64,000 bases of DNA from a virus, in the IMG/VR virus record IMGVR_UViG_3300045988_184100, positions 33,784-97,783 of that record. One strand, 5' to 3'. Below the pieces are notes generated by a model that ran no database searches, was not told the DNA's origin, and saw only the letters and a program-made list of their open reading frames with translations. The position numbers and the translations under genes are program-made. Numbering within the stretch: position 1 is the stretch's first letter; each line of letters starts with the position of its first letter. Positions 2,365 through 23,157 of this stretch are shown here, in pieces.

Positions 2365-2443
2365 TGGCAATAGCGGCTGGAGTTGAACCAACATATCGTT
2401 ACCTGTGAGAGAGGTACGGCATTACCAGTTATGCTACGCTATC
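2365..2443 (-). tRNA. Atypical tRNA, possibly tRNA-Glu (CUC); non-standard spacing between the D stem and the anticodon stem
   Basis: Acceptor GATAGCG/CGCTATT, D-loop AACTGGTA, anticodon stem TACCT/AGGTA with loop CTCTCAC, T-arm GTTGG-TTCAACT-CCAGC, CCA. There are two nucleotides where one is expected at position 26. Confidence 0.45.
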
Positions 2444-7306: not shown

Positions 7307-7340
7307 AAAAAGAGGCAGGCGAAAGCCGCCTCTTTTTTCT
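7304..7340 (+). terminator. Intrinsic terminator ending the recG operon
   Basis: AGAGGCAGGCGAAAGCCGCCTCT followed by TTTTTTCT. Confidence 0.6.
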
Positions 7341-7349
7341 CTGCTATTG

Positions 7350-7484
7350 TTGACATTATAAATAATTGTGGTAGTATAATAGTATAATTACGAAGATATT
7401 TTTATAAGGAGACTTATCTCCGCTTCCAGTCACACCAAGTATTCAAGACAGTTATCCCAAGACAGGGATAGCTGTCTTTTTATA
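7350..7484 (+). promoter_or_regulatory. Island module copy 1: strong promoter (TTGACA-17-TAGTATAAT), conserved leader with a hairpin that sequesters an SD-like sequence, and an intrinsic terminator
   Basis: TTGACATTATAAATAATTGTGGTAGTATAATAGTATAATTACGAAGATATTTTTATAAGGAGACTTATCTCCG ... GACAGTTATCCC-AAGACA-GGGATAGCTGTC followed by TTTTT. Confidence 0.6.
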
Positions 7485-7527
7485 TATTTTTTTTACATTA
7501 CAACACAATAAGAAAGGAGAAAACATA

Positions 7528-7794
7528 ATGGCACAGGCAAAAATGGTTTTCAGCTATCTCGGCCCCGTTCGTGTCTATGACGACATTACCACAAATAAGT
7601 GGGGCGGGACGACTATGGCGGTTTCTGAGAAACAGGCTCGTAACAACTTGGCCCACCAGTATCGAAAACAGCGCGGATTGCTCCAGTGTGTGCCTGTCAA
7701 AATGACGGGTGAGTTGACAAGCTACAACGCACCGATAATGCCGCCGTTCAGGTCCAAGCGGAGACCTTCGTATCGCGGAGGTGAAGCGCAATGA
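7528..7794 (+). CDS. Hypothetical protein (88 aa)
   Basis: ORF with AAAGGAGAAAAC Shine-Dalgarno. Confidence 0.45.
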   Translation: MAQAKMVFSYLGPVRVYDDITTNKWGGTTMAVSEKQARNNLAHQYRKQRGLLQCVPVKMTGELTSYNAPIMPPFRSKRRPSYRGGEAQ

Positions 7795-8063
7795 TGTGGA
7801 ATGGAAAGTGGAACGGAGCAAATGCCATCGTAGTTCACACGCCGCAGAGCTTTCGGTCGTTCAAGCGAGCTATCCGTTCTCTTGGCGATGTGTGGGCTGA
7901 CTGGAATCATGTGTATTTCAGTCAGTGCAGAGATTTGTACTCCGCAGCATACCTTCCCTGCTATCCAGACAAGAGTCCCGAAGATAGCACAATCACCTAT
8001 CACTGGCTCAAGGAAACTTGGTCCAAAGAAGGTCCTCGTGCCGTAGGCATGAACATTCAATAA
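7791..8063 (+). CDS. Hypothetical protein (90 aa)
   Basis: ORF overlapping the upstream stop (ATGA). Confidence 0.4.
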   Translation: MMWNGKWNGANAIVVHTPQSFRSFKRAIRSLGDVWADWNHVYFSQCRDLYSAAYLPCYPDKSPEDSTITYHWLKETWSKEGPRAVGMNIQ

Positions 8064-8079
8064 ACGAGGAGGAGAAGCT

Positions 8080-8283
8080 ATGTCTACACCGCTGTATGAG
8101 TTAATTGAGAGAGCCGAGCGTATGGATTCCATCTACTCCGAGCGCTACACATCTTTCTCTTCTGAACAGGATAGGCGTGCGAAGCAGTGTATTGCGGAGG
8201 CTCGCGAAGCTATCGAAGAGCAGCGAAAAATCTGCGAAAGACGACGCCAGCAGGCAGCCGTAACACTGTCTCGGCAACATTGA
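8080..8283 (+). CDS. Hypothetical protein (67 aa)
   Basis: ORF with AGGAGGAG Shine-Dalgarno. Confidence 0.4.
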   Translation: MSTPLYELIERAERMDSIYSERYTSFSSEQDRRAKQCIAEAREAIEEQRKICERRRQQAAVTLSRQH

Positions 8284-8304
8284 AAAGAAAGGAGTAAATT
8301 CATT

Positions 8305-8520
8305 GTGAAAGTAAAAAAGAAAATTCGTTACGCCGGCGAATGCTGCATTTGCCACGAACCCATTGAGGTTGGCGAAGAATATGTCGAGGCACCTTACGAA
8401 AACAAACAGTGTCATATCGACTGCATGGAGACAGAGCCGCTTAAAGCGGTTCTGTCTTTTTTCGGCATTCCGTCGTGTGTAACCAATTCTGAAGGAAAGG
8501 AGACAAGAATCTATGGGTAG
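8305..8520 (+). CDS. Small Cys-rich (CxxC...C..C) protein, candidate antitoxin or partner of the downstream MazF-like gene
   Basis: GTG start after AAAGGAG. Its last 8 nt overlap the toxin gene start. Confidence 0.35.
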   Translation: MKVKKKIRYAGECCICHEPIEVGEEYVEAPYENKQCHIDCMETEPLKAVLSFFGIPSCVTNSEGKETRIYG

Positions 8521-9094
8521 AAATGGAAATATCCGCAGGGGCGATGTATTTTGGGTCAATGCGAAAGAAATCGAAATCTTTTCCCCTTGGGCCCCGGAAG
8601 GAAGTCAGTTCCGCGATAAAGACGGACATCCTTCCAATAGCTCTGTTATCAGAGGACATCGTCCCGCAATCGTTGTATCTTCGGATGACCTGAACCGCTA
8701 CAGCAGTGTAGTGGAGGTCGTATTTACAACATCATCTCCAAAGATGCAGCAGCCCTCCCATGTACTCATCACGAGCACGAGCCGCCCAAGCACAGCACTG
8801 TGCGAGCAGCCGATGGCAGTTTCTGTCAATGAGCTGGGGGCCTATATCTGCCACCTGACTGAAGCGGAGCTGGTAGACATCGACGCCGCGCTGTACTACA
8901 GCATGGGGCTGAGTGCTCGTGTGAACGACAATGATGATAATACATGGCGTGCGCGGTATGAAACCATGCACAGGGCATATTCCGAGATGCTTGTCCATGT
9001 TATGCGAATCATGGACAGCAACAACAAGCGGGCCACACCGTACCCCGCAGCCACCGTTGGAAGAAGAAAGGAGCAAGCCGAAAATGAGGGGTAA
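8513..9094 (+). CDS. MazF/PemK-family toxin-like protein with an insertion and a C-terminal extension (193 aa)
   Basis: RGDVFWV ... RPAIVVSSDDLN ... VVEVVFTTS matches the PemK/MazF core (RPxxVxS..N....V..TT). Confidence 0.5.
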   Translation: MGRNGNIRRGDVFWVNAKEIEIFSPWAPEGSQFRDKDGHPSNSSVIRGHRPAIVVSSDDLNRYSSVVEVVFTTSSPKMQQPSHVLITSTSRPSTALCEQPMAVSVNELGAYICHLTEAELVDIDAALYYSMGLSARVNDNDDNTWRARYETMHRAYSEMLVHVMRIMDSNNKRATPYPAATVGRRKEQAENEG

Positions 9095-9356
9095 TCCTAT
9101 CTTCATCGTGTTTGCCTGTGACGCTTGGAAAGCAACAGACTCTATGCGTCTGGTTTCTGCGACGACTTCCCGCGCAAAGCTGAAGGAGCTTGTGGCAACC
9201 TGCGTCGAGTCCGAGACGTTTGAGTACGGCGAAGACTCCGTAGAGGCCGCTGCGACGCAGCTCCGCAAGGACTTTGATAGCGGATTAAGTATCTACGACA
9301 TCAACAACAACCTCAGATTCGGTATTATAACCGCTGCCGAGGATGGCGAGATGTAA
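9084..9356 (+). CDS. Hypothetical protein (90 aa)
   Basis: ATG 8 nt after GAAGGAG. Overlaps the toxin gene end by 11 nt. Confidence 0.4.
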   Translation: MRGNPIFIVFACDAWKATDSMRLVSATTSRAKLKELVATCVESETFEYGEDSVEAAATQLRKDFDSGLSIYDINNNLRFGIITAAEDGEM

Positions 9357-9372
9357 GAAAGGAGATGTAAAA

Positions 9373-10332
9373 ATGGGATACACTATCATTGATGCCCGCT
9401 CTTTCATCAAGACAACTCGTGGTATCATTCCCCTTGCCTTGGGTGGCAGCAACAACTGCTCCGAGTTTATCTACGACAGGAATTTCAAGCCGCGAGAGGT
9501 TCGCGAGCGCCACTGGTTCTTGCTGGGAGGAATCAATCTTCTGGAACTTCCTGAGGACGAATTTGTGGCGAAGGTGAATACCACCTTCCCCGACACCGAT
9601 GATGAGTGCTGGAAGATGAACAGCAAGTGGGTCACTTGCTCTCAGGCACGGAAATGGTTTGCTCGCGCCGCAAAGGATGCCGCCACGCTGGAGGACATCC
9701 TCGCCGCCAATCCCGGCGTCAACGACCTGAATGTAGGGCTGATGCCCTATACGTCCGGCGACCATCTGCTGTGGAGGTATGTCAGAACAACGGATGAGCT
9801 GGAAGTCTGGCTGGATGAGGCACGGGAACTGGTAAAAGAACACAAGGACCACTACATCTTCATGTCGTTCAGCGGAACACAGCGCGGCGAGCGCCTGCGA
9901 CCTGCCAGAGCGCGGGATGTAAAGGGTCCGCTTGTAGTTCAAAAGCGCAACGCGGGCTATGTGCGTGCGTTTGATAATGTGATTGGAAGAATAACTGTGC
10001 ATTTCACAAAGGATGTCAGAGATGCCATTCACTACCCGTCTGCGGAAGCAGCTACGGCAGCAATGGGAGAGGTTATCAGCGTAATGGGACTTGAGTTCAA
10101 GACCGTAACGCGCAAGATGACGGCGCCTCGGCCCTATGTCGTTATGTGTACGGAAAAGGCATACGCAGGGAAGTATGTGAAGAAATCCGTGAAGAACAAC
10201 CTCCAGTACACGTCCTCCGTGGATGATGCTCAGAGGTTTATCAGTGAGAAAGACGCTGAGGCAAAGATTTCTTCCTTGCGAGGCAAATTTCTCAGCGCAC
10301 AGTATCTTAAACCAGTTTACGTAGAAGCGTGA
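9373..10332 (+). CDS. Hypothetical protein (319 aa)
   Basis: ATG after GAAAGGAG. The six-frame track begins at 9343. Confidence 0.45.
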   Translation: MGYTIIDARSFIKTTRGIIPLALGGSNNCSEFIYDRNFKPREVRERHWFLLGGINLLELPEDEFVAKVNTTFPDTDDECWKMNSKWVTCSQARKWFARAAKDAATLEDILAANPGVNDLNVGLMPYTSGDHLLWRYVRTTDELEVWLDEARELVKEHKDHYIFMSFSGTQRGERLRPARARDVKGPLVVQKRNAGYVRAFDNVIGRITVHFTKDVRDAIHYPSAEAATAAMGEVISVMGLEFKTVTRKMTAPRPYVVMCTEKAYAGKYVKKSVKNNLQYTSSVDDAQRFISEKDAEAKISSLRGKFLSAQYLKPVYVEA

Positions 10333-10343
10333 ACAACAAGCCT

Positions 10344-10377
10344 AAAAAAAGAGCCGCTATGCGGCTCTTTTCTTTTG
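10344..10377 (+). terminator. Intrinsic terminator
   Basis: AAAAAAAGAGCCGCTATGCGGCTCTTTTCTTTTG. Confidence 0.6.
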
Positions 10378-10388
10378 CGCCGAAACCG

Positions 10389-10525
10389 TTGACATTATAA
10401 GGAAATGTGGTAGTATAGTAGTATAATTACGAAGATATTTTTATAAGGAGCTTTGTCTCCGTTTTCAGTCACATCATCACATTCAAGGCAGTTGTTCTCT
10501 TTTGAGAACGACTGTCTTTTTATAT
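10389..10525 (+). promoter_or_regulatory. Island module copy 2: promoter, leader and terminator
   Basis: Same promoter and leader as copy 1. The terminator stem GCAGTTGTTCTC/GAGAACGACTGTC covaries with the other copies. Confidence 0.6.
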
Positions 10526-10584
10526 ATTCACTACATTTTTGTTCCCATAAGACCTTAACACAGGCTGGGAGAAAGGAGAAAAAT

Positions 10585-11337
10585 ATGGCATATATCTGTG
10601 AAAAGCCTGCTGGTTCCTGTGCGTTATGTGAGCACTATCGTTTCGATGAGGAAAAGGGACGAAAAGTGTGCTTTGCCGCTGTGGATAAGTGTGAGGCAGA
10701 AAAAAAAGCAGCCGAGCTGAAGGTCGTTGCGTCGAAATCCGGATGTGATAAGGCAGAGAACACCTGCATCTCCTGTGAGAAGTATGTGTGGGACGACAAA
10801 GTGGCGCGTTACGTGTGTCTCGAAGGCGAGGATGCAGCGAGAACTGCAACCCTTCCCAGCAGAAGATACGCGATGCTTTTTGTGAGCCACTCCCCTATCG
10901 GCGAAAGCTCTCTCGTGGATGTGTGTGCGTTGTCCTTCGACACACTGGATGAGGCTCGCGTGGGCGTTGAGTTGGTAAAGAACGCGCACACACACGTCAG
11001 CAACCAGTTCAGAGGCAGACGCGGTCTTTTCCCGTTTGCCGGTGAAATGCTCTCCGATGAGGAGTGCCGCCGTGTGTTCGGCGCAAAGGTTCTCTGTGCG
11101 TATTCCCTCTACTACACGGATGAGTACGATGCAAGCGTCAAGGCGAGAGCTTTTTCCTACCTCGCGGTAGAGGCCGAAAATGCGCGGGATGTTATCCGGC
11201 GTCTTCTGCATCACAATTTGGACTGTGGCACCTGCCAGACCTTCGTTGATGAGGGTTGCGAAACCTATCACGACTGCCCTTACCACGGCGAGTGCGCCAA
11301 GTTGGGCGATGTCTGGGTAGAAAGAAAGGCGGTGTAA
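10585..11337 (+). CDS. Cys-rich hypothetical protein (250 aa)
   Basis: ATG after the conserved CACAGGCTGGGAGAAAGGAGAAAA element. Confidence 0.45.
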   Translation: MAYICEKPAGSCALCEHYRFDEEKGRKVCFAAVDKCEAEKKAAELKVVASKSGCDKAENTCISCEKYVWDDKVARYVCLEGEDAARTATLPSRRYAMLFVSHSPIGESSLVDVCALSFDTLDEARVGVELVKNAHTHVSNQFRGRRGLFPFAGEMLSDEECRRVFGAKVLCAYSLYYTDEYDASVKARAFSYLAVEAENARDVIRRLLHHNLDCGTCQTFVDEGCETYHDCPYHGECAKLGDVWVERKAV

Positions 11338-11339
11338 GA

Positions 11340-11672
11340 ATGTTGCTTTCTGTAAAGCTGAAAAACGGACTTACCTCTCTGGCAGAACAGATGGGCATGG
11401 ACATTACCACGCACCTGAAGAACATCACAGTCAACGGACAGAAGCGCGGCTGCTCTGGCTTCGTGACTTGCGGAGAGAGTTGCGTCTATGTAACAACCGA
11501 GCACTCTTGCTATGGACCTATTTCCGACAAATCCATGTGCCGCTATGCCAAGAATACAGAGGATTTCTCCAGCAACGGTCTGAAAAACGGCTATAACCAG
11601 TTTGTGGCCGACGATTTATTGGCCGCAAAAGTCATTTCCATGCTCAAAAACGGCAAAGGCATCCCCCGCTGA
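11340..11672 (+). CDS. Hypothetical protein (110 aa)
   Basis: ATG after AGAAAGAAAGG. Abuts the upstream stop. Confidence 0.4.
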   Translation: MLLSVKLKNGLTSLAEQMGMDITTHLKNITVNGQKRGCSGFVTCGESCVYVTTEHSCYGPISDKSMCRYAKNTEDFSSNGLKNGYNQFVADDLLAAKVISMLKNGKGIPR

Positions 11673-11700
11673 GGGGGATGCCGGCAGAAAGGAGGCTCCC

Positions 11701-12252
11701 GTGAGGAAGGACTACATTAGATTTCCCGCAAGGATGAAACAGCTCGTCAGCTTCACGGGCATGACTATTGAAAACAAGGGTAACTGTTATCCTACCGACA
11801 TAGACGGACTCATTGAGTATCACGACAAGGGGTATGTTTTCTTTGAGGTGAAGCATCGTAATGCCGCAATGCCTTATGGTCAGAGACTCGCGCTGCAGCG
11901 CATGGTGGAGGATGCTTCCAGAATTGGAAAGACATCTATCGCCATCGTGTGTGAACATACGGTAGACAATCCCCTCATTCCCGTCACAGTTGCAACGTGT
12001 CGGGTCAGGGAAATCTACTATTCTAAGGAGCATCGTTGGCGGGCACCAAAATACCCCACAATGACCGTGAGACAAGCGGTAGATGGGTTTCTCTACACGC
12101 CAAGCGTTCAGCAATACAGAACGCCCTCTGGCGGCATTAGCACCCTCGTGGTGGCTCAGGTAGCGAGAGGAGGGGCTATCCCCTTCCCTCCCGCCTACCC
12201 AGCCGCACAGAGCTACGGTGCTGTGCCTGATACGCTGAGGCAGAGCAGTTGA
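11701..12252 (+). CDS. VRR-NUC-like or PD-(D/E)xK nuclease-fold protein (possible)
   Basis: DIDGLIEYHDKGYVFFEVKHRNA...QRLALQ fits the D...E-V-K...Q pattern of VRR-NUC. GTG start 5 nt after AAAGGAGG. Confidence 0.35.
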   Translation: MRKDYIRFPARMKQLVSFTGMTIENKGNCYPTDIDGLIEYHDKGYVFFEVKHRNAAMPYGQRLALQRMVEDASRIGKTSIAIVCEHTVDNPLIPVTVATCRVREIYYSKEHRWRAPKYPTMTVRQAVDGFLYTPSVQQYRTPSGGISTLVVAQVARGGAIPFPPAYPAAQSYGAVPDTLRQSS

Positions 12253-12283
12253 AATCCGCGAAAAAAAAAGAAAGGAGAACAAC

Positions 12284-12736
12284 ATGGGAAGAAACAAGGT
12301 TTTGTCCCGCGATGAGGTTGTAAAGAACCTGAAGAGACAACTCACCGAGTGTGACATTAACGACATCCCAACGGACGCAATTCGACACTTGCAGATGGCG
12401 AGAATTATCTGCGAGTGCAATTATGTGTTCCTCGATGATGTTATCGAGACTCTGGCGAATTGGCTGAAAATGGATACCGGTGAAATTCCAAAGGGTGCGA
12501 TATCGCTCCTGCAGGACGCACTGGATGCCTGTCGCGGAACCTCACCACATAAGCGGCGCAAGGTAAGCGTAGAAGGCACCGATACACCGTCAGAGGTGTT
12601 CGACGAGCTCCTGTTTCTTGGAGATGTCACCGGATTGCTCGGTGAATGGTTTGACATGGACACTCAAGACATTCCTGAGACGGCGTTGGCTGCGCTGCAT
12701 AAGGTTTACGACCTTTGTTGTCAGGAATATGAGTGA
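12284..12736 (+). CDS. Hypothetical protein (150 aa)
   Basis: ORF with GAAAGGAGAA Shine-Dalgarno. Confidence 0.45.
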   Translation: MGRNKVLSRDEVVKNLKRQLTECDINDIPTDAIRHLQMARIICECNYVFLDDVIETLANWLKMDTGEIPKGAISLLQDALDACRGTSPHKRRKVSVEGTDTPSEVFDELLFLGDVTGLLGEWFDMDTQDIPETALAALHKVYDLCCQEYE

Positions 12737-12766
12737 CCCCGCGAGGAAAAGAAAGGAGAAAAAAAT

Positions 12767-13504
12767 ATGCCCAGAAAGGAACCTTATGAGCGGCGAATCT
12801 GCCTCTCACATTGTCCTGTCAAAGAGTGCGACACAGACATCTATCGTGGCTCTCGTTGCAAGGAACTGCGCGAGAAAGCCGGCATCCATTTTGACCCCGA
12901 TGCCTTTAAGGGCAAAAAGCCTAAGCCCATTATTTTCAACGGAGAGATGGTTCGAGCCATCCGTGAGGGTCACAAGACGGTAACACGCCGTGGTGCGTTT
13001 CACTTCGCCGGCAAACGAGCGGAAGGTCTGTACCGTGACGGTGATGGGCGTCTCGTGGCAGCCTTTGCTGATACGGATGCTGTCATCCGCAGCTTTCGCG
13101 CCCCGTTTGATAAGGGCGATATCCTGTATGTCCGTGAGACGACTTGTGCCTGCGATTTCAACCGCTGGCTCTACAAGGCCGATTATTCGGATGAGGATTT
13201 GAAAAACTCCCCTGAGGTGAGTTCCCTCATTCACTGGACACCATCCATTCATATGCCCAAAGAGGCGGCACGCATTTTCCTGCGTGTGACGGATGTGCGG
13301 TTGGAACATTTGAATGACATGAAGGACGAGGACTTCACTAAGGAGGGCATCACCTGTGACAGTACCTCCGGCGAGAACACCATGTCCCTTCAGGAGAAGT
13401 TTATCGAGCTGTGGGACAGCACGATTCCCGAACACAAGGCCCTGTCCAAGTGGGACGGAAACCCGTGGGTATGGGTCATTGAGTTCGAGGAGGTGCAGTT
13501 CTGA
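12767..13504 (+). CDS. ASCH-domain protein
   Basis: IIFNGEMVRAIREGHKTVTRRG matches the ASCH core. Confidence 0.5.
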   Translation: MPRKEPYERRICLSHCPVKECDTDIYRGSRCKELREKAGIHFDPDAFKGKKPKPIIFNGEMVRAIREGHKTVTRRGAFHFAGKRAEGLYRDGDGRLVAAFADTDAVIRSFRAPFDKGDILYVRETTCACDFNRWLYKADYSDEDLKNSPEVSSLIHWTPSIHMPKEAARIFLRVTDVRLEHLNDMKDEDFTKEGITCDSTSGENTMSLQEKFIELWDSTIPEHKALSKWDGNPWVWVIEFEEVQF

Positions 13505-13803
13505 TGGCGACGGATTACCATGCAGTGATTCAGGAGAATATCCAAAAACAGAACGGCACCTACGAGTCCAATGCAAACCCGTTTGGCATCTGCGGCACCT
13601 GTGGCTGCGAGCTTGAACCGAGCTACTTCGTGGAGGAGGAAGAAATCATCCAGCATGGGGTGCGTTTCAAGACCGGTCGTATTCGGCGGGCTGTGGACTG
13701 TCTCGTTTGCCCCAACTGTCTCCGTACTGAATGTGTGGACGACAGCTTCGACGGTCCTTGGATGGATAAAGCCCAGTGGAAAAAGCTCCATGGGATGCAT
13801 TGA
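13504..13803 (+). CDS. Small zinc-ribbon protein (99 aa)
   Basis: CGTCGC ... CPNC cysteine pairs. ATG overlaps the upstream stop. Confidence 0.4.
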   Translation: MATDYHAVIQENIQKQNGTYESNANPFGICGTCGCELEPSYFVEEEEIIQHGVRFKTGRIRRAVDCLVCPNCLRTECVDDSFDGPWMDKAQWKKLHGMH

Positions 13804-13824
13804 AAAATGAAAGGAGAAAAAACA

Positions 13825-14328
13825 ATGAAAGAAATTCTGTTTCGCGGCCAGATTCGGCGGCATGGTGAGAAAGTTCGCATGGCAACCGGAGCACCCCTGC
13901 CGGGAATTTGGGTCTACGGGGGCGCCGCACGTCCCCATAACAGCCCGAAGGACTTCGCCATCATCTACACGTACTTGTCCGACACGGCTGAAAGCCGCGA
14001 TGTTTGCGGCGTCTACGCGGATACCGTTACGCAGTATACCGGTATCGACGACAAGGATGGAACCAAGGTATTCGAGGGAGACATTGTGGAGACTTTTGAG
14101 GGCTTCCACCCCACGGCTCGTTTTAACGAGCACACAGTCGTGTTCCGCAACGGTTCCTTTGGCCTGCTGGTTAGTGAGTCTTTGAAAACAAAAACGGCAG
14201 CAGAGCTGATGGACGAGGCTTACGACAACGGACATTTTGTTCCGTTTTGCAAGCTGCTCGGAACCAAAATCCGTGTTGTTGGCAACATCTTCGATGGCGT
14301 CGCTGATGAGACCGCAAGAAATGAATAA
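13825..14328 (+). CDS. YopX-family phage protein
   Basis: MKEILFRGQ ... VYGG ... DKDGTKVFEGDIV matches YopX. ATG after AAAGGAGAAAAAAC. Confidence 0.5.
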   Translation: MKEILFRGQIRRHGEKVRMATGAPLPGIWVYGGAARPHNSPKDFAIIYTYLSDTAESRDVCGVYADTVTQYTGIDDKDGTKVFEGDIVETFEGFHPTARFNEHTVVFRNGSFGLLVSESLKTKTAAELMDEAYDNGHFVPFCKLLGTKIRVVGNIFDGVADETARNE

Positions 14329-14337
14329 CTCGAATCT

Positions 14338-14371
14338 AAAAAGAAGCTCCTTTTGGGGCTTCTTTTTTTTG
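14338..14371 (+). terminator. Intrinsic terminator
   Basis: AAGAAGCTCCTTTTGGGGCTTCTTTTTTTT. Confidence 0.6.
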
Positions 14372-14382
14372 CGCCGTTTCCG

Positions 14383-14516
14383 TTGACATTATAAAGAATT
14401 GTGGTAGTATAGTAGTATAATTACGAAGATATTTTTATAAGGAGATTTATCTCCGTTTTCAGTCACATCATCATATTCAAGACAGTTGTTCTCATTTGGG
14501 AACGACTGTCTTTTTA
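14383..14516 (+). promoter_or_regulatory. Island module copy 3: promoter, leader and terminator
   Basis: TTGACATTATAAAGAATTGTGGTAGTATAGTAGTATAAT ... GACAGTTGTTC-TCATTTGG-GAACGACTGTC followed by TTTTT. Confidence 0.6.
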
Positions 14517-14553
14517 TATATTCAGAACAAATAAAAACGAAAGGAGAAAACGC

Positions 14554-14730
14554 ATGAAACAAAAGGAGCTTACCCAGTATGAGTGCGATACACACCCGTC
14601 TATCCATTATACAGGCAGCGTGCGCGGTATGAAAGCAAGCGGCTTGTGGGGAAAGAACGACGAATGTGTGCGTTGTGGTAATTATATCTACAACCTGTCT
14701 ATCACACTTGGGCCTTACAAGCAGATTTAG
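14554..14730 (+). CDS. Small protein (58 aa) with a CxxC pair; not in the ORF track because it is under 60 aa
   Basis: ATG 6 nt after GAAAGGAGAAAAC. Translated by hand as MKQKELTQYECDTHPSIHYTGSVRGMKASGLWGKNDECVRCGNYIYNLSITLGPYKQI. Confidence 0.4.
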   Translation: MKQKELTQYECDTHPSIHYTGSVRGMKASGLWGKNDECVRCGNYIYNLSITLGPYKQI

Positions 14731-14745
14731 AGAAAGGAGAATAAA

Positions 14746-15054
14746 ATGGATACATCTTCGCTGCACTTTGTTGACAGCACATTGTCTCAGTATCGGAACG
14801 AGTTGTTGTTCCACCCCCGCAAGAAGTTGCCCGCAAAAGACGTCAACGACGCTCTGAGGCGGCTGCTGGAAATAACGGGAGTACAGGGAAAGGTCAGGGA
14901 CACCCTGACTACCCACCTGAACGACAGGTGCGGATATGCCCGCGATTTGAGTAAGCCTACGCCCTCAATCGCACAGGTCATCTCCGCTATGGAATTCGCG
15001 TTGCAGTCGGTTTATGCCGACCGGCCTGTTATGGAAGGGGGTGCAAGAGCATGA
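14746..15054 (+). CDS. Hypothetical protein (102 aa)
   Basis: ORF with GAAAGGAGAATAAA Shine-Dalgarno. Confidence 0.45.
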   Translation: MDTSSLHFVDSTLSQYRNELLFHPRKKLPAKDVNDALRRLLEITGVQGKVRDTLTTHLNDRCGYARDLSKPTPSIAQVISAMEFALQSVYADRPVMEGGARA

Positions 15055-15260
15055 GTAAGCATCGCTGGACAATCGAAGAGCTGAAGAGCGTCAATGACGC
15101 TAAGTTTGCTATGGCGATTCTGATGGAGCGCCGCAGTGAGTTGTCGAATCCCTACACCCCGTTCGCACAGCGTCTCACCAGCGTCATCAATACACTGATG
15201 GACATGGCTGTGGATGGCGGGCTGACAGACGAAGAAAGGAGTAAGAACAATGGCCGCTGA
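15051..15260 (+). CDS. Hypothetical protein (69 aa)
   Basis: ORF overlapping the upstream stop. Confidence 0.35.
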   Translation: MSKHRWTIEELKSVNDAKFAMAILMERRSELSNPYTPFAQRLTSVINTLMDMAVDGGLTDEERSKNNGR

Positions 15261-15615
15261 AATGAGACTTTACCGCGTAACGGTTGTCGGCAGCAATGCC
15301 GAGAGGCAGCGTGGAAAAGTGGTGGATGAGGTCACAGTCAAGGTCGGAACCAAGTGGCTGACGGACGATAACGGTCGGCGTTACTACAAGGCACCGCTTG
15401 AGGATGCAAACCGAAACCTCTACTTCCAGCTCAACACCATGTACTGCATGGACTACCGGCTGTATCAGACAGAGCAGGCCGCCAAGGATTACCTTCGGCA
15501 AGCGGAACTGCGTGTGACGCTTTGCAGAGCCGTTGGCGACTTCGGCTTCAACGCCCCGTTGACCGTGTTGGAGAAGGTCATGGACATTCTCAAGGAAGGC
15601 GGGTGCCTGAAATGA
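15250..15615 (+). CDS. Hypothetical protein (121 aa)
   Basis: ORF overlapping the upstream stop. Confidence 0.4.
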   Translation: MAAEMRLYRVTVVGSNAERQRGKVVDEVTVKVGTKWLTDDNGRRYYKAPLEDANRNLYFQLNTMYCMDYRLYQTEQAAKDYLRQAELRVTLCRAVGDFGFNAPLTVLEKVMDILKEGGCLK

Positions 15616-16391
15616 GCACGAAAATCTTTGACGCTTGGCGCATCAATTCTACCGACATCGGAGAGTTGGTCAAGCTCGGCAACGAGATTCGGGAAGTGCA
15701 GCAGAAGTCCTTCGTGGACGCTGTCTACAACTCGCTCGATTTCTGCCAGCTCGCTATCATCTTTGCCAAAAAGTCTGTAGAGGCTGTTGAGGAGCTCAAA
15801 CCTTCGTTTGCGTCAATCGCCGCGAACGTCGTTCACAAGTGCGTTTTGATGTACGATTGGACGCCATCTTTCACGATGACGGATAACGCCAAAAGCTCTG
15901 CGGAACAGATTCTGCAGAAGGAGGCTCAGAAACGGAAGATTTCATTGACAGTAGAGCAGAAGAGAAATCTGCTCGACGTTATCACTGAAATCTACGAAAT
16001 CGTCTCCCGTGATTGGCAGGCGTCACTGCTGTTTCTCAGGGGCGATAATGGCAGTACCTACATGAAAGGGTTCAATCTCACCAGAGAAGCGGCCCATTTC
16101 ATCGACTCCCAATATCCCCGCTTTGAGTACACCGACCAGACGGAGATGAATATTTCAGACTTCAACGAGTACACACGGCAGTACATTGACGCTGCAAAGA
16201 CGGAAGAAGAGCGCTATGAGAGGCTCTTGGAGGCCCAGCACGAACGTGGAGAACTGTGGGACAAAGCATTCGCAGGCCAAAGTGTATGGCGCAATGCCGG
16301 TCTCTCCGTCTCTCTCGTGCCGGCACAGCTTCAGGAACAGTTCGTGACTATCCACTCCATCTGCAAAAAGGTGTTCGGCACCGAAGCCTAA
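15612..16391 (+). CDS. Hypothetical protein (259 aa)
   Basis: ATGA overlap with the upstream stop. Confidence 0.45.
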   Translation: MSTKIFDAWRINSTDIGELVKLGNEIREVQQKSFVDAVYNSLDFCQLAIIFAKKSVEAVEELKPSFASIAANVVHKCVLMYDWTPSFTMTDNAKSSAEQILQKEAQKRKISLTVEQKRNLLDVITEIYEIVSRDWQASLLFLRGDNGSTYMKGFNLTREAAHFIDSQYPRFEYTDQTEMNISDFNEYTRQYIDAAKTEEERYERLLEAQHERGELWDKAFAGQSVWRNAGLSVSLVPAQLQEQFVTIHSICKKVFGTEA

Positions 16392-16414
16392 CGAAAAAAG
16401 AAAGGAGAAAAATC

Positions 16415-17056
16415 ATGGAGAATAACCAAAAGAACGCTGTGGAGGTCGAGACCAGCGTTCCTGACCTGATTCCGGCCAACTACCGCGAAAAGGCAGAAAC
16501 ACTGGGCTGGGTCATCGACGAGGACAAGGTCTGTGGTGTGTTCACGTTCAGGCAGGGGTCGCCTGCCGGCGAGGACTATTCCTTCGACCTGTACGCCGAC
16601 GATGACTTCAGCGACGGTGTGGCTGCTGCTGTGCGCCGCGTCTACGAGGACTTCGACGTTGACGAGCACGTCGCTCTGTTTGCGGAGGCTTCCGTAAAGG
16701 GCACGTCAGGCGTTCCGAAGCTGTCAGTGCTTGTCGAGGACGCCAAGGAAATCAATGAGATGCTTCTCACACTCGCCGAAGCGTTTGAAGACATCGAATC
16801 TGGTACATCAGAGCGGGAGCAGAAGGTGTATACCCGCTGCTGCCCCAACTGTGGTGGCGTATCTTTCTCTGGTCATCAGGTCCTCCACATTGATGTGTTG
16901 GTTGACATCGAAACGGGAGATTTCCTCGGAAATATCAACGACGAAATCGAATCTAACATCTACGAGTCGTCTGACCCCTACGGTCCATATCACTGCATGA
17001 CCTGCGGATTTGAATGCGACAACCTTTCCGAGCTGGAAAAGAGCGAGGTGGAGTAA
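16415..17056 (+). CDS. Acidic hypothetical protein with a C-terminal zinc-ribbon (213 aa)
   Basis: ATG after AAAGGAGAAAAATC. The C-terminus has CPNCGG and CMTCGFEC. Confidence 0.45.
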   Translation: MENNQKNAVEVETSVPDLIPANYREKAETLGWVIDEDKVCGVFTFRQGSPAGEDYSFDLYADDDFSDGVAAAVRRVYEDFDVDEHVALFAEASVKGTSGVPKLSVLVEDAKEINEMLLTLAEAFEDIESGTSEREQKVYTRCCPNCGGVSFSGHQVLHIDVLVDIETGDFLGNINDEIESNIYESSDPYGPYHCMTCGFECDNLSELEKSEVE

Positions 17057-17061
17057 CTCTA

Positions 17062-17223
17062 ATGTCGATTATTCTTTACTTCGCACTTACCATTCTCGTG
17101 ATGTGCGGCATATTCCTTGGCATAAAGAGACTGGACACACAGGACCTCTTGCCGCCAATCATCTGCAGCGTTTCTGTGGGCGTTATTATGGTGGAACTGT
17201 TCGCACTTGTTCGGTGGTATTAA
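17062..17223 (+). CDS. Small membrane protein (53 aa)
   Basis: Hydrophobic ORF. Confidence 0.3.
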   Translation: MSIILYFALTILVMCGIFLGIKRLDTQDLLPPIICSVSVGVIMVELFALVRWY

Positions 17224-17237
17224 CGGAGGTGAAGGAC

Positions 17238-17414
17238 GTGTTCAAAATGCTGACGAACCCCTTGTTTATAGCCTATGTCGTTCTTATCATCGCCGCAATG
17301 GTCGTCTCAGTCATAGCCGCAAAAAAATCAGACCAGCCAGAAATGCTTCCGGCTGCCTTTGGTACTATTGCGCTCACCATTGTTTTGGTTATTGTAGCGG
17401 TCATAACCGGTTAA
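17238..17414 (+). CDS. Small membrane protein (58 aa)
   Basis: GTG start 8 nt after GGAGG. Hydrophobic. Confidence 0.3.
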   Translation: MFKMLTNPLFIAYVVLIIAAMVVSVIAAKKSDQPEMLPAAFGTIALTIVLVIVAVITG

Positions 17415-17482
17415 ATTAAAGCCAGCGGGAGGGGCGCTCTGCCTCTCCCCTGCTTAAAAAAGAAAAGGAAGGAGATATTCGA

Positions 17483-17701
17483 ATGGCATACAGCATTGCT
17501 GAAATCGCGGCCATCAAAGCGGAGTATCCCGCAGGCACAAGAATCAGACTGAAACACATGGACGAAAGCAAGTTTCCTGTGGCAGACGGCACGACCGGTA
17601 AAGTCACTTATGTGGACGATAACGGCCAGATTCATATGCGTTGGGATAATGGCCGCACGCTGCCGCTCGTTCCGGGCGTCGATGATTTCGACAAAATCTG
17701 A
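17483..17701 (+). CDS. Hypothetical protein (72 aa)
   Basis: ORF with AAGGAGATAT Shine-Dalgarno. Confidence 0.4.
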   Translation: MAYSIAEIAAIKAEYPAGTRIRLKHMDESKFPVADGTTGKVTYVDDNGQIHMRWDNGRTLPLVPGVDDFDKI

Positions 17702-17732
17702 GCTGTTTTTTCAAAAAGAAAGGAGAAAAATT

Positions 17733-18776
17733 ATGGGTAATACATCTATCAGAGCCGCTGCATCTTTCTGCAACGAGAACACGCTGGTCAAGGTCTACCG
17801 CTATAATCCTAAGTACGACAGGTTCGAGATGACCTTCGTTCCTTTCAAGGACATCCGCAAGAGCGATTCTGTGAGCGTCTTTGCCAGTGATGGGCACGAG
17901 ATGCACTTTTCCGTTCTCACAAATGCTTCTTTTAAGAAGGACGAGCGATACGGGAACGAGTGCGGTTGGTCTGTGAAAGTCACTGAGGACGGCGGCAAGA
18001 CGGAGATGGTTCTTCGTCCCACCGATTTCGCGCCCTACATCATCAGCCTTTCCGTTACCGACGAAGGAGAGTGGCGCGGCTGCCGGCTGCTTTTCGAAAG
18101 CGTCCTCAACGACACCGAAGCTATCGTCAACAATATGCGGGCGCGATTCGAGCCGCGTGTTGCGCCGGAAAACACCTGCGGGCGGCATTCCGACACAGTT
18201 GCGGCCATGGCGAAGAGAGACCTCACTCGTGAGTGGACGGAGCAGTTCGGCTTCCGGCTCATTTCGGACAGCGTAAACTTCGCCCAGTGCGGTGTGAAGG
18301 ACATTCTCTCTGAGAAGTTCTTCAATTCCCCGACCATGGAGCTGACGTTCTTCGCCTATTCCGACGGCGAGTATTCAGCGTCCCCCCTGTTCTTTGCCAA
18401 ACTGCCCGATTTGGGCGAACGGTACAACAAGCCTGAGGGACGTGCTGCAATCGCAGAACTGCTGCAGAAGCTGGACGAGATGTACGGCGACCTGCCTGAA
18501 GACACAGAAAAATGGGCACTGGAGTATCAACTTTGGGCTCGTATGCTGCTGGCAGAAGGTGCGGTCATGCTGAATCCGAAGCACCTCGACCTCCCCGACT
18601 CCAGCGCCTACGAATTCATAACGCTGGCTTTCGGTAATAAAATGCTGAAAGACAGCGGTGACGGTATTGCGTGGGCAAAGGCTGTCAAAACACCTATCAG
18701 CGTAATCGCCGAGGCGTGGGAGAATGACATGAGTGAGTCCGGCGATGAGGCTTTTACCTGCATCGTAACTGGCTGA
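17733..18776 (+). CDS. Hypothetical protein (347 aa), paralog of the next gene
   Basis: Shares SPLFFAKLP.LG ... YGDLPE.TE.W.LEYQLWARMLL.EGAVMLNP.HL with 18793-19839. Confidence 0.5.
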   Translation: MGNTSIRAAASFCNENTLVKVYRYNPKYDRFEMTFVPFKDIRKSDSVSVFASDGHEMHFSVLTNASFKKDERYGNECGWSVKVTEDGGKTEMVLRPTDFAPYIISLSVTDEGEWRGCRLLFESVLNDTEAIVNNMRARFEPRVAPENTCGRHSDTVAAMAKRDLTREWTEQFGFRLISDSVNFAQCGVKDILSEKFFNSPTMELTFFAYSDGEYSASPLFFAKLPDLGERYNKPEGRAAIAELLQKLDEMYGDLPEDTEKWALEYQLWARMLLAEGAVMLNPKHLDLPDSSAYEFITLAFGNKMLKDSGDGIAWAKAVKTPISVIAEAWENDMSESGDEAFTCIVTG

Positions 18777-18792
18777 AGTTGAAAGGAGAACC

Positions 18793-19839
18793 ATGGATAA
18801 TCTGATTTCAAACAAGCGAAAGCTGCACTGCGACGAGAACGTATTGGTCCATATCGTGCGCTACTGCCATGATACGGATGATACAGATGGCGACGGCATT
18901 AGAGAGGTGGAAATGTATGTCCCCTTCAAGTATATCTGCAAGGGTGATACCATTGATATTCCTGATAAGGACACCGACGATGCCTTCAGAACAACCGCCT
19001 ATGCTGCTGAGGACGCTTCGTATAGCGAAGCTCGTGCGGGTGGTTGGTTTGTGCCGGTCGCCTGTACTGGGCAGAAAGAGTATGTTCTGAAGCCTGATGA
19101 TTTCGCACCTTGGCTCGTGACCCTGAGTGTCGCGTTCACACACGGGTCGTCCTGCAAGCTCTTTTTCGAGTGCGTGGAACGACGCGAAGAGAAGCTGTGG
19201 GCAAACATCCGCAGAATCTTTGACGATGTACCGACGCTGCGGCATGAGCTGGGTTTCGTTGCCCTCGTCCGACATATGGCACGGAAGTACCTCACACCTG
19301 ATAGGACGGAGCCTCTTGGCTTCAGATTCCTTTCGGATGATGTTGTCTGGAGCAACTGTAAAGTGAAGGATATCCTTCCCGACCGGTTCTTCGCAGCAGC
19401 GGACATGACGCTAAGGTTTTACGCCTATGCGGAAGACGAGTATGCTGAAAGTCCCCTATTCTTCGCCAAGCTGCCGTATCTCGGTACGCATCACGGAACT
19501 CCCGCAGGCTGCGTGATTTGCGCCTCCATCCTGCGAAAGCTGGACGAGCTGTATGGCGACCTGCCGACGGAAACGTCCCGCTGGTCGCTTGAATACCAGC
19601 TCTGGGCCCGTATGCTGCTGACGGAAGGCGCAGTCATGCTGAACCCGATGCATCTGACACTCTATGAAGACGAGCATATCTTTAATTCGCTTGTCTCTTG
19701 CGATGATGCGCTGGAAGTCAGCGGTGATGCCATTGTATGGAAGAAGGCATCCGGCACTCCCAGCAACAAGATTACTGAGGCGTGGGAAATAGAGACGGAA
19801 AAGTCTGGCTGCAATGACACATTCACTTGCGCCATTTAA
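18793..19839 (+). CDS. Hypothetical protein (348 aa), paralog of the previous gene
   Basis: Same conserved C-terminal core with a divergent N-terminus. Confidence 0.5.
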   Translation: MDNLISNKRKLHCDENVLVHIVRYCHDTDDTDGDGIREVEMYVPFKYICKGDTIDIPDKDTDDAFRTTAYAAEDASYSEARAGGWFVPVACTGQKEYVLKPDDFAPWLVTLSVAFTHGSSCKLFFECVERREEKLWANIRRIFDDVPTLRHELGFVALVRHMARKYLTPDRTEPLGFRFLSDDVVWSNCKVKDILPDRFFAAADMTLRFYAYAEDEYAESPLFFAKLPYLGTHHGTPAGCVICASILRKLDELYGDLPTETSRWSLEYQLWARMLLTEGAVMLNPMHLTLYEDEHIFNSLVSCDDALEVSGDAIVWKKASGTPSNKITEAWEIETEKSGCNDTFTCAI

Positions 19840-19865
19840 GCCACGGAAAGGAGGAACAAACGAAA

Positions 19866-20507
19866 ATGCTGGATACTGCCGACATTCGCCATTTTGTAAT
19901 ACCGAAGATAAGAGAGACCATTCTGTATATCAACCGCTATGAGAAAGCGGCTGAAGCCATTGCCACAATCATCGGGATGGGTGCGTCCTTACAGGTTCGT
20001 CCGAAGTTGTCTGACCTGCCGCAAGACGCGGCGGAACTGGTTCTGCGGAAGCGCGAACTGGCTGAGTTATACGGCTTCGTCGAACAAAACTACGCCCATC
20101 TCCTGATTTCCGGTATTCTGTTCCGCAGCGACAGTGAGAGCAAACAGAAATCCATCAAAGCCTACCACGAGTTGTACTTTGCGCTGTGCGAGTATATCGT
20201 CCATGTGTCGCATTGCACGGATATACTCTACAAGGCAAAAGGACAGCATAATGACCATTTGTGGATTTGGGATGATGATGGTGCATTTAAGGCCGCTTGG
20301 ACGGTTCAGTACCATGAGGATTTCGACAACACACTCTCCGCAATGAGCCATCAGGAAAATGAACTGCTCCAGACCATTTCCAGAAGCGCCGCCGTAATGC
20401 GAGACGCCTTCGCAGCGTTTTCCTTGGATTATCGCAACGACGCTGATGGGTACGGCCAAAGGGTTCTGAAGGAGTATCAGGAGCGCATGGTTAAAAGGGA
20501 ATGTTAA
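19866..20507 (+). CDS. Hypothetical protein (213 aa)
   Basis: ATG after AAAGGAGGAACAAAC. Confidence 0.45.
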   Translation: MLDTADIRHFVIPKIRETILYINRYEKAAEAIATIIGMGASLQVRPKLSDLPQDAAELVLRKRELAELYGFVEQNYAHLLISGILFRSDSESKQKSIKAYHELYFALCEYIVHVSHCTDILYKAKGQHNDHLWIWDDDGAFKAAWTVQYHEDFDNTLSAMSHQENELLQTISRSAAVMRDAFAAFSLDYRNDADGYGQRVLKEYQERMVKREC

Positions 20508-20531
20508 TCGCAAGATAAAAAACTAAATTTC

Positions 20532-20565
20532 AAAAGAAGCTCCTTCGGGAGCTTCTTTTTTTTAC
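20532..20565 (+). terminator. Intrinsic terminator
   Basis: AAAAGAAGCTCCTTCGGGAGCTTCTTTTTTTT. Confidence 0.6.
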
Positions 20566-20574
20566 GTTGCTGCT

Positions 20575-20712
20575 GTTGACAAAATAGCGAAACGTGGTAG
20601 TATAGTAGTATAATTACGAAGATATTTTTATAAGGAGTTTTATCTCCGTTTTTCAAGTCACATCATAAATTCAGGCAATCACTACCCTCTTCGGGCAGTG
20701 ATTGTCTTTTTC
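20575..20712 (+). promoter_or_regulatory. Island module copy 4: promoter, leader and terminator
   Basis: The promoter and leader are conserved. The terminator stem has a completely different sequence (GGCAATCACTACCC/GGGCAGTGATTGTC) but the pairing is preserved. Confidence 0.6.
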
Positions 20713-20779
20713 TATATATACATTTTATTTTGGTTTCCCGTAAGTCCTTATCACAGGCTGGGAGAAAGGAGAAAACATC

Positions 20780-22645: not shown

Positions 22646-22657
22646 GGGTCCGAAAGG

Positions 22658-22694
22658 AGAAAAGAGGCATGGTGCCTCTTTTCTTTCTTTTCGG
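22658..22694 (+). terminator. Intrinsic terminator
   Basis: AAAAGAGGCATGGTGCCTCTTTTCTTTCTTTTC. Confidence 0.5.
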
Positions 22695-22720
22695 ATAAGA
22701 AAGAAAGGAGAAAAAGCACC

Positions 22721-23140
22721 ATGACTCAGAACTATAACAACATCAACTTTTTCAATCGTGAAAATTACAACGCGCTCTGCGCCAAGGTCGGCGAATGCGT
22801 CAAGAAGGGTATTCCCAATGCAGATAAGCTGCTTGAGAACCTTGAAGAGCGATGCTCTGCCTTCCTCGACTATGTGAACACAGTTGATATGGGTGAGACA
22901 CGCATCATCATTGCTCACAACCGTCTTGAGGGCGAAGACCTCCGCGACGCATTGCAGACCATCGACAGGCTCCGTAAATGCTACCATGACGTTGCTTGCA
23001 ATAGCTGCAATATCATTAACCGGATGGCGGCAGCAAATGGAATCGGACCTGTTTTTACCGGAGATTCCACCGACCGCCTGCAGGTGGCAGACTTCTGCCT
23101 CGAATTTACCGTTGAAATTTTCAAGAACCGGAAAAAGTAA
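22721..23140 (+). CDS. Hypothetical protein (139 aa)
   Basis: ORF with GAAAGGAGAAAAAG Shine-Dalgarno. Confidence 0.45.
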   Translation: MTQNYNNINFFNRENYNALCAKVGECVKKGIPNADKLLENLEERCSAFLDYVNTVDMGETRIIIAHNRLEGEDLRDALQTIDRLRKCYHDVACNSCNIINRMAAANGIGPVFTGDSTDRLQVADFCLEFTVEIFKNRKK

Positions 23141-23157
23141 GAAAGGAGAGTTGACGC

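Follow-up and report, generated by a model that had tools for sequence, protein, structure and literature searches.

Why should a mobile element place a strong transcription terminator between a promoter and the first gene of an operon, and do so at the head of one operon after another? The question is raised by a 64,000-nucleotide stretch of DNA (the window), which comprises positions 33,784 to 97,783 of the IMG/VR virus record IMGVR_UViG_3300045988_184100. Between positions 7350 and 20712 of the window, four near-identical modules, each composed of a promoter, a short leader and a predicted intrinsic terminator, precede four successive transcription units. The modules share one anatomy, both of their hairpins are under selection at the level of RNA, they stand strictly in cis to the genes behind them, and their architecture is deeply conserved. 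The reading favoured here from sequence comparison, tentatively and with a probability of roughly 0.4, is that each module would be a portable cis-regulatory gate: transcription would stop there by default, read-through would be needed for expression of the operon, and one lineage-specific factor would open the gate in trans.

Anatomy of the four modules and of the units behind them

The original prediction had placed the modules at 7350-7484, 10389-10525, 14383-14516 and 20575-20712, and all four were recovered there, on the + strand. A 41-mer core, GTAGTATARTAGTATAATTACGAAGATATTTTTATAAGGAG, is matched exactly four times in the window and not once in 100 shuffled sequences; neither an nhmmer profile nor a covariance model detected a fifth copy in the window. 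Each promoter is of the consensus sigma-A type and consists of TTGACA, 16 nt and TGgTAGTAT. The spacer had first been given as 17 nt and is corrected to 16 nt by a consensus scan (TTGACA-16-TAGTAT with a TG extension). A second hexamer, TATAAT, starts 11 nt past the start of the first (TAGTAT) in all four modules, and a direct repeat, GTAGTATA, overlaps the -10 element. The leader, about 75 nt long in each module, folds into a small hairpin (GGAGA/UCUCC), which is followed by a perfect terminator hairpin of 14-15 bp (AAGACAG...CUGUCUU) and then by UUUAUAUAU, i.e. a U-rich tail UUU(UU)AUAUAU. These stems were initially put at 11-14 bp; the larger figure counts AAG:CUU at the base. The module terminators have free energies of -19 to -23 kcal/mol and fold z-scores of -4.9 to -5.8. 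No alternative antiterminator fold was predicted in the module leaders, in which the minimum-free-energy and centroid structures show only the small hairpin and the terminator.

The promoter of module 1 occupies 7350-7388, with the -35 TTGACA at 7350-7355, the TG-extended -10 TAGTAT at 7372-7377 and TATAAT, the probable start region, at 7383-7388. Its leader (7389-7444) contains the invariant ACGAAGATATTTTTATAA, the GGAGA/UCUCC hairpin (7408-7421) and a C/A-rich spacer, and its leader terminator (7445-7483) has a 14 bp stem at 7445-7478 followed by the U tail; the first gene begins at 7528. Module 2 has its promoter at 10389-10427 (-35 at 10389-10394, -10 at 10411-10416, second hexamer at 10422-10427), its leader at 10428-10484 (hairpin 10447-10460) and its leader terminator at 10485-10523, with a 15 bp stem at 10485-10518 and a U tail. 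In module 3, the promoter lies at 14383-14421 (-35 at 14383-14388, -10 at 14405-14410, second hexamer at 14416-14421), the leader at 14422-14478 (hairpin 14441-14454) and the leader terminator at 14479-14517 (15 bp stem at 14479-14512 and U tail), with the gene starting at 14554. Module 4 comprises a promoter at 20576-20614 (-35 at 20576-20581, -10 at 20598-20603, second hexamer at 20609-20614), a leader at 20615-20672 (hairpin 20634-20647) and a leader terminator at 20673-20712, the inner stem of which is wholly different, GGCAAUCACUACCC/GGGCAGUGAUUGUC, with the pairing kept.

A third conserved element, designated P3, is found between the leader terminator and the Shine-Dalgarno (SD) sequence in most paralogue classes, though not in all. 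In the window it follows module 2 at 10543-10570 (UUCCCAUAAGACCU..AGGCUGGGAG), directly 5' of the SD of the gene that starts at 10585, and module 4 at 20734-20765, ahead of the gene that starts at 20780; elsewhere it was seen at L118:100-140 and in the loci L152 and L151. P3 comprises two stems and a UAAG internal loop; the outer stem is (U)CCC/GGG(A), and the inner one varies with the lineage (CCU/AGG, CCUGC/GCAGG or GCCCUG/CAGGGC).

The modules had been described as each preceded by the terminator of the previous unit, and this holds for all four. A bidirectional-type end-of-unit terminator lies on the + strand at 7305-7339, before module 1, and its equivalents lie at about 10344-10378 before module 2, about 14338-14373 before module 3 and at 20532-20559 before module 4. 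A long stem is not a special mark of the leader terminators, as the unit-end terminators are equally long when A:U extensions are counted. The four units headed by the modules run on the + strand from 7528 to 25380 (7528-10332, 10585-14328, 14554-20507 and 20780-25380) and hold about 35 genes, which encode MazF-like, YopX, DUF4314, AAA+/VWA pair and DUF3232 proteins among others. From 7350 to about 25400, the only high-scoring + strand promoters (10/12 with a TG extension) are those of the four modules, and thus the ~35 genes depend on passage of the module terminators. The remaining + strand matches there score 9/12, lack the TG extension and are about as numerous as in shuffled sequence. A promoter inside or 3' of the leader terminator was considered and rejected, since the -35-like hexamers at that place differ between copies. 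A leader peptide was rejected as well, because the leader AAGGAG is not followed by a conserved start codon, TTG occurring in module 2 only.

Among the small proteins of the window there is a weak NCBIfam match to the Lar restriction-alleviation family (E 0.006), the assignment of which to the open reading frame (ORF) at 25435-25671, from a CPVCGG motif, is a guess. Several other small window proteins are double zinc-ribbon proteins. Together these hint at anti-defence content in or beside the units.

Conservation and selection beyond the window

A search for the module elsewhere had been suggested, and the covariance model and other scans did reveal a family of such cassettes in other contigs and lineages. 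Exact matches to a 33-mer of the core number 92, in 20 IMG/VR contigs, and at least 109 cassette copies were collected when variants were included. A contig carries one to 12 copies, always co-directional within the contig and spaced 1.4-20 kb apart. Perfect terminator hairpins of 14-15 bp and -19 to -23 kcal/mol, with a U5-7 tail, are present throughout the ~109 copies, among which no stand-alone cassette was found; every copy is followed, 38-100 nt past its terminator, by an SD and an ORF. Since the first ORFs behind the copies belong to at least 12 unrelated families, the cassette is portable and does not belong to a duplicated gene. Scanning viral contigs with a 17-mer gave only further same-lineage copies and chance matches in SD contexts. 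The exact 33-mer is absent from the GTDB species representatives, in which a protein-based scan found no close relative either.

One copy is chimeric. In contig IMGVR_UViG_3300045988_182106, the module at L053:7452-7651(-) joins the promoter, hairpin and spacer of module 2 type to the terminator and gene of module 3 type, and the module spacing is 3040 and 5940 nt, compared with 3039, 3994 and 6192 nt. The 3,994-bp unit 2 has therefore been deleted by recombination between modules, and the cassettes also serve as recombination points.

The terminator stems had been described as differing in sequence between copies while keeping their pairing. This covariation proved to be real: in 20 distinct copies, 8 of the 15 pairs have changed on both sides, and 96% of the cells of the helix are paired, as against 49-61% with slid partners. 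The covariation score of 0.354 (0.231 in shuffles) was reached by none of 500 shuffles, and the G.U wobble intermediates are compatible with + strand RNA only. The small GGAGA/UCUCC hairpin shows no covariation within the window's lineage but does so between lineages. Covariation alone proves only selection for a hairpin, as in any real terminator. The predicted module terminators have a G+C-containing hairpin and a U tract, with pairing under selection, as intrinsic terminators do. The modules are thus RNA-level leader and terminator units under selection, as originally proposed, rather than products of chance or simple duplication.

Conservation within the lineage is concentrated at the 5' end. 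In 30 distinct copies from about 10 paralogue classes, the 43 alignment columns from the -10 element to the 5' arm of the small hairpin are invariant except for two in the -10 region, and the variable parts are the -35/-10 spacer, the hairpin loop, the leader spacer and the terminator stem. In the -10-region variants, both hexamers are kept and the bases between them are changed. The second hexamer, TATAAT, is retained in about 108 of 109 copies, and also in a related lineage despite changed preceding bases. This lineage is one of several in which homologues of the AAA gene behind module 4 were found, at 85%, 69% and 32-42% identity. In the 85% lineage, the two modules seen have one set of derived changes in common (GAATTATAAT, GCT, AAAGGAG and a shorter loop); as these changes are shared by the two paralogues, the core evolves in concert.

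In two distant lineages, represented by loci L119 and L123, 20-kb stretches were read. Both are co-directional arrays, that of L123 encoding SSB, ParA, a DNA methylase, YqaJ and RecD2. Their operons again begin with a consensus promoter, after which come a conserved 5' stretch (AUAUGAAGUUUAG... in L119 and AACGAGGAUUU... in L123), a hairpin, a spacer and one or more long terminators. The 5' hairpins of L119 keep their pairing and differ in sequence by paralogue (AGAAAUAGU/ACUGUUUCU, AGAGAAUGUGG/CUGUAUUCUCU and AAGCAAUA/UAUUGUUU), and L123 has two tandem leader terminators, the second with a 20-bp stem. Orthologous genes, namely the AAA gene and a 414-aa gene, keep the upstream module in the window's lineage, L119 and L123.

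A metagenome scan with an alignment of the AAA protein yielded 80 loci, the upstream sequences of which fall into 23 clusters. A promoter and leader terminator are present upstream of the AAA gene in 17 of the 23; three others have the terminator, with the promoter out of range, and the remaining three lack it. Of 28 modules, 27 have a purine motif (GAAG, GGAA or GAGG) 13-16 nt past the -10 element, where it forms the first hairpin's 5' base; the motif was found with a permissive regular expression, and the figure does not amount to a rigorous statistic. Terminator stems of 12-24 bp are found across the other lineages, often as tandem pairs, and the minimal leaders are about 60 nt long (L151, L153). 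A covariance model built from the window's lineage alone matches several distant lineages (E ~1e-5 to 0.1). The decisive evidence for the family is this conservation of a predicted architecture while the sequence was turned over, in 17-20 of 23 lineages and with a marker protein only 32-42% identical.

These lineages also bear on two details of the original prediction. An SD-like AAGGAG paired in the small hairpin is present in the window's lineage, but it is lineage-specific and not a feature of the family. Likewise, the second of the two -10 hexamers is present here as TATAAT, but its interpretation as a promoter element is weakened: other lineages have only (C/T)AT(C/A)NT, e.g. CATCAT, CATCAA or CATATT, a form that suits a start site and RNA 5' end (AUCAU...) no less well than it does a sigma-dependent pause element.

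Several further observations were made at related loci. In a Lachnospiraceae-type chromosomal AAA-VWA operon (L122:9780-9880), a consensus promoter is followed directly by GGAAGCCGUA...UACGGCUUCUUUUUU, with a simpler leader hairpin (GGAAG...CUUCUUUUUU); this leader could represent the cassette in a minimal or ancestral state. The AAA-VWA copy of E. oxidoreducens (L121) has no module. In the 85% lineage (L116:3148-3260), four copies of TCCCGACTAAA at an exact spacing of 34 bp lie just upstream of a module -35. They resemble iterons or operators and were seen neither in the window nor at any other locus. In the low-GC lineage of L119, a repeat, TTTTACCGCCATTTACTTATGAAAAGGTAGAAA, follows unit-end terminators at about 3535, 7755 and 17545, near genes for an IS200/IS605 Y1 transposase and TnpB.

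A proposed conditional gate and its alternatives

In the favoured reading, the RNA polymerase of the host, carrying sigma-A, would initiate at the near-consensus promoter and transcribe the ~75-nt leader, the 5' part of which (AUAAUUACGAAGAU..., with GAAG 14 nt past the -10 element, and the small 5' hairpin) is invariant within a lineage. It would then meet a very strong intrinsic terminator, where by default an RNA of about 100 nt would be released and the operon would stay off. Expression of the operon would need read-through, and one trans-acting factor would switch this on at all modules together, so that the 12 or more operons of an array would form one regulon. The factor would recognise the lineage-specific leader, as RNA or as the same sequence in DNA, and would either make the polymerase resistant to the terminator or block formation of its hairpin, with a logic like that of lambda N/nut or of LoaP and its leader hairpin. 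A reversed polarity, in which a factor of the element enforces termination after establishment, is also possible.

Several properties of the family argue for trans-activated read-through. First, the stop signals are uniformly very strong and often doubled, a strength that would be wasteful if the terminators were merely leaky; that they terminate efficiently in vivo, and conditionally, is inferred. Second, the leaders are short and unstructured and have no alternative fold, which makes a self-contained switch (ligand-sensing or attenuation) unlikely and a dedicated factor probably necessary. Third, the leader core acts like a recognition site, invariant within an element and diverging in concert between elements, as do the cis sites of a co-evolving factor. 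A role in cis is favoured because the copies are co-directional and are followed at 38-100 nt by SD and ORF, with at least 12 unrelated first genes and no stand-alone copy.

A number of points weigh against such a gate. The original prediction had noted no evident N-, Q- or LoaP-like factor, and this is borne out: no match to the NusG/KOW, Q, N, ANTAR, CAT/PRD, HutP or TRAP family was found in the 47 window proteins or in precomputed annotations, and phmmer searches with NusG, RfaH and lambda N gave nothing in 5840 ORFs. Among possible regulators, such as the first genes of the units, an HTH protein (38219-38929), a protein with a LexA DNA-binding domain (L063:12002-12418) and small basic proteins like that at 7528-7794, none stood out. 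The leader is poorly structured compared with put, EAR, canT and conAn2. Terminators with 15-bp stems are resistant to conAn antitermination of pLS20 (PMC10325885), and by analogy the leader terminators, at about 15 bp, would have the resistant stem length. The strong end terminator that each unit possesses fits oddly with fully processive antitermination. Finally, the invariant core spans the -10 region and start site, and its conservation could be that of a DNA operator or of promoter strength. It is possible, though doubtful, that the modules belong to a new trans-acting system of termination control, in which a factor unrelated to N, Q, NusG paralogues and ANTAR would open (or, with reversed polarity, close) at least 12 identical leader terminators at once and so switch the array; the 5' end, the GAAG-based hairpin and the long terminator would then constitute a new cis-regulatory RNA family.

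That no factor was found would suit a constitutive attenuator, insulator or mRNA-leader cassette, at which a fixed large fraction of transcription is stopped, expression is low and insulated, the leader is a 5' stabiliser or a standard translation leader, and no dedicated factor exists. This alternative survives best, although it is considered rather unlikely. The units are insulated at both ends, and with the conserved P3 just 5' of the SD the read-through mRNAs look designed. Polypurine and SD-like 5' stabilisers, such as STAB-SD and the SP82 polypurine stabiliser, are an established precedent in Bacillus (cited in PMC3997798). However, with one or two perfect terminators of 12-24 bp behind each of 12 or more consensus promoters in an element, over 90-99% of initiations would be wasted, and AAGGAG is not conserved in other lineages. 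The 5' hairpin, in addition, begins 7-10 nt from the predicted 5' end, which is rather far for a hairpin to protect against 5' exonucleases.

The combination of a strong promoter and terminator with an invariant 5' stretch of 45 nt and a variable 3' part is also the typical layout of a small RNA (sRNA). The ~100-nt RNAs could themselves be the product, i.e. sibling sRNAs that act in trans from many copies through a conserved 5' seed, with downstream expression as incidental read-through; up to 12 copies per element would give a very high dosage. This is thought unlikely, given that each copy is co-oriented with the SD and ORF behind it, for which there is no other promoter, and that between lineages the 5' sequence is kept only as GAAG and structure. 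In the window no complementary target of 13 nt or more exists, the longest outside the modules being 12 nt, and no Rfam match was obtained. A trans-complementary RNA to the leader was sought in the window and rejected: the 12-mer at position 160 is an unrelated -10 element plus TTACGAA beside the TnpB end.

The inclusion of non-transcribed bases in the core, together with the GTAGTATA direct repeat over the -10 element, could instead indicate a DNA operator. On plasmid p576, four promoters of establishment genes share repeated heptamers bound by one RHH repressor, Reg576 (PMC6294495), and the modules might similarly form a repressor regulon of establishment or early genes, expressed transiently after entry and only dampened by the terminator. 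The gene content resembles that of such a regulon (Lar-like, MazF and YopX here; SSB, ParA, methylase, YqaJ and RecD2 in related lineages). Nevertheless, the repeat is lost in variants and in the 85% lineage, dyad symmetry is absent from the core, the hairpin covariation with G.U tolerance points to a constraint on RNA, and the strong terminators conserved in every lineage are left unexplained. A regulon of this type is accordingly regarded as quite improbable.

Loading of a Q-type protein is very improbable. Here the second hexamer, TATAAT, which lies at about -1 to +5 and 11 nt after the true -10, would make the polymerase pause close to the promoter in a sigma-dependent manner; a Q-like protein would load there and bring about read-through of the terminator, as happens at lambda pR'-tR' (6S RNA). 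The near-universal retention of TATAAT in the window's lineage and the 85% lineage agrees with this, as does the -10-like element required in the Q21-like BrrG system (bioRxiv 10.1101/2024.11.20.624540). Against it, the CATCAT, CATCAA and CATATT of other lineages are a better match to a CA start site, variation is seen in the -35/-10 spacer, the place of lambda Q binding, and family scans found no Q-like protein. A single-strand DNA promoter or priming site (Frpo- or ssi-like) for conjugative entry is hardly credible, for although the co-directional array resembles a plasmid leading region (PMC11541004), the promoter is a normal double-strand consensus and lies in no hairpin of the template strand folded as single-stranded DNA (z -1.8). 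Countertranscript-driven attenuation of the pIP501/pT181 type is disfavoured, as no minus-strand promoter-like site lies in or beside the modules.

If the gate is conditional, it would constitute a compact regulon-wide switch of about 150 bp in very common uncultured gut mobile elements. It would switch the whole accessory or early array of a widespread family of large elements of gut Clostridia, would explain how dozens of accessory, anti-defence-like and recombination genes are silenced and then released jointly, and would suggest a novel antitermination or termination factor in Firmicutes, for which few have been described. The cassette also provides a signature of sequence and structure for finding such elements and their operon boundaries, and might serve as a tightly controlled expression part in Clostridia. 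Being a 150-bp repeat in 12 or more copies, it probably gives rise to assembly breaks and to gene shuffling through the modules.

The carrying element and related regulatory systems

The modules are carried by a family of uncultured elements, mostly from gut metagenomes, with Firmicutes-type expression signals. One window protein was found in 1252 blocks of the metagenome collection, on contigs of up to 281 kb, and many of the metagenome record titles say human gut. A megablast search with 7300-21000 found nothing in the phage and plasmid collections; with the AAA protein as tblastn query, plasmids and phages yielded remote matches only, and PHROGs identified almost nothing among 10 larger proteins. 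The abstracts and searched passages of the HiBC megaplasmid and GuFi phage papers show no evident link to this element. The contigs are classed as viral by IMG/VR; their content looks at least as much like that of a large conjugative element. Further window genes encode a RecG-like helicase, an HD protein, a topoisomerase IA, an SPFH protein and an NS-type endonuclease, and related pieces additionally encode RecD2, YqaJ, a large serine recombinase, a methylase and a PBECR4 nuclease.

Another set of near-identical promoters forms a second class, which has no leader terminator; its members lie at 2753(-), about 2950(+), 41986(-), 42266(+) and 53412(-). These promoters are composed of TTGACA, a W-rich stretch, TATGTTCGTG, N and TAnnnT, and they head the tRNA cluster, the RecG operon, the topoisomerase operon, a gene of 188 aa and the adhesin operon. 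As this class has no leader terminator, the element has two promoter regimes. Five tRNA genes (Gly-TCC, Thr-TGT, Thr-CGT, Glu-CTC and Ser-TGA) lie inside the apparent mobile element at 1903-2443(-) and 31138-31225(-). Two giant TQ/SpaA/thioester adhesins, of 1916 aa and at least 3444 aa, are encoded at 46106-51856(-) and 53633-63967(-), with 5 and 18 T-Q ester-bond domains, SpaA domains and a thioester domain. A TnpB (IS605 OrfB) gene is located at 458-1642(-), and past its 3' end (150-265) are two copies of ACCCTGTTATTTC(A/C)GGGTGGTGTATACC, which probably represent omega-RNA or a transposon end. An IscB-like ORF with the N-terminus MTMVYVQNKDGKPLMP occurs in related contigs (L014:7144-8628).

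When compared with known RNA families, the window gave only tRNAs at the Rfam gathering thresholds, and an E-value scan of module 2 reached 19.5 bits at best, where thresholds range from 39 to 141. Among antitermination systems, lambda N/nut resembles the modules in having a short linear motif and, after it, a small hairpin that is specific to the lineage, both close to the transcript's 5' end and upstream of terminators. In both cases one factor would serve several units; the cis site likewise evolves in concert with the (presumed) specificity of the factor. The modules differ in that no CGCUCUUA-like boxA was seen in their leaders, that an element has from 4 to at least 12 sites and lambda two, that the terminator follows the site directly, before any gene, and that each unit has its own end terminator. 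No N-like protein was detected by phmmer or family search, and the divergence of N proteins leaves room for an analogue.

LoaP, a NusG paralogue, reportedly acts with a leader hairpin on the leader terminators of Bacillus antibiotic operons. The order of promoter, leader with a small required hairpin, intrinsic terminator or terminators and operon is the same there, again in Firmicutes, whereas the modules form a multicopy regulon in a mobile element, with no NusG/KOW protein found. PF02357 and PF00467 are absent from the window genes, and a NusG paralogue encoded by the host remains conceivable. In the EutV/ANTAR regulon of Enterococcus, several terminators in one locus are opened by one RNA-binding protein, and the co-regulation in trans of several leader terminators in a cluster would be alike. 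However, the modules have a single hairpin with a UUUA or NUUURU loop that does not overlap the terminator, no dual hexaloop (A1/G4) and no ANTAR protein. Unlike attenuators, riboswitches and T-boxes, they have no mutually exclusive folds and no leader peptide. With lambda Q and with BrrG of the Bartonella gene transfer agent, the modules share a -10-like hexamer at the transcript start and would share a strong constitutive promoter that gives a short terminated RNA until an antiterminator acts. In the modules, however, the DNA between -35 and -10 holds no conserved site, the hexamer changes from lineage to lineage, and no Q-like protein was found.

Termination and antitermination also gate operons of Gram-positive mobile elements in the conAn (pLS20), canT (Tn916), put and EAR systems, where terminators act as insulators as well. 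These RNAs are structured and 65-600 nt long, with a single copy per operon that lies at a distance upstream of the terminators (PMC8191782; PMC11658703), whereas the module leader is short, poorly structured and present in many copies, with its own terminator 25 nt downstream. The Reg576 promoters of p576 are likewise several near-identical sigma-A promoters that head small co-directional operons of early or establishment type in a Firmicutes mobile element, but they use DNA heptamer operators and a repressor and have no leader terminator (PMC6294495). The PeSLs of T4-type phages are repeated promoter/terminator cassettes before variable accessory genes, and they too are recombination points; however, the stem-loop of a PeSL is the terminator of the upstream gene and stands before the promoter (PMC4122927), and the modules add a terminator between promoter and gene. 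Judged by their sequences, the modules thus do not appear to be members of the N, Q, NusG-paralogue, ANTAR, conAn/canT/put/EAR, Frpo or PeSL families. Leader terminators as gates of operons are, in general, well known. What is new is the combination: no recognisable factor, a short leader without an Rfam match, from 4 to at least 12 identical copies per element that head every operon of a one-directional array, and a layout that many lineages of this very common gut element family have conserved without its sequence.

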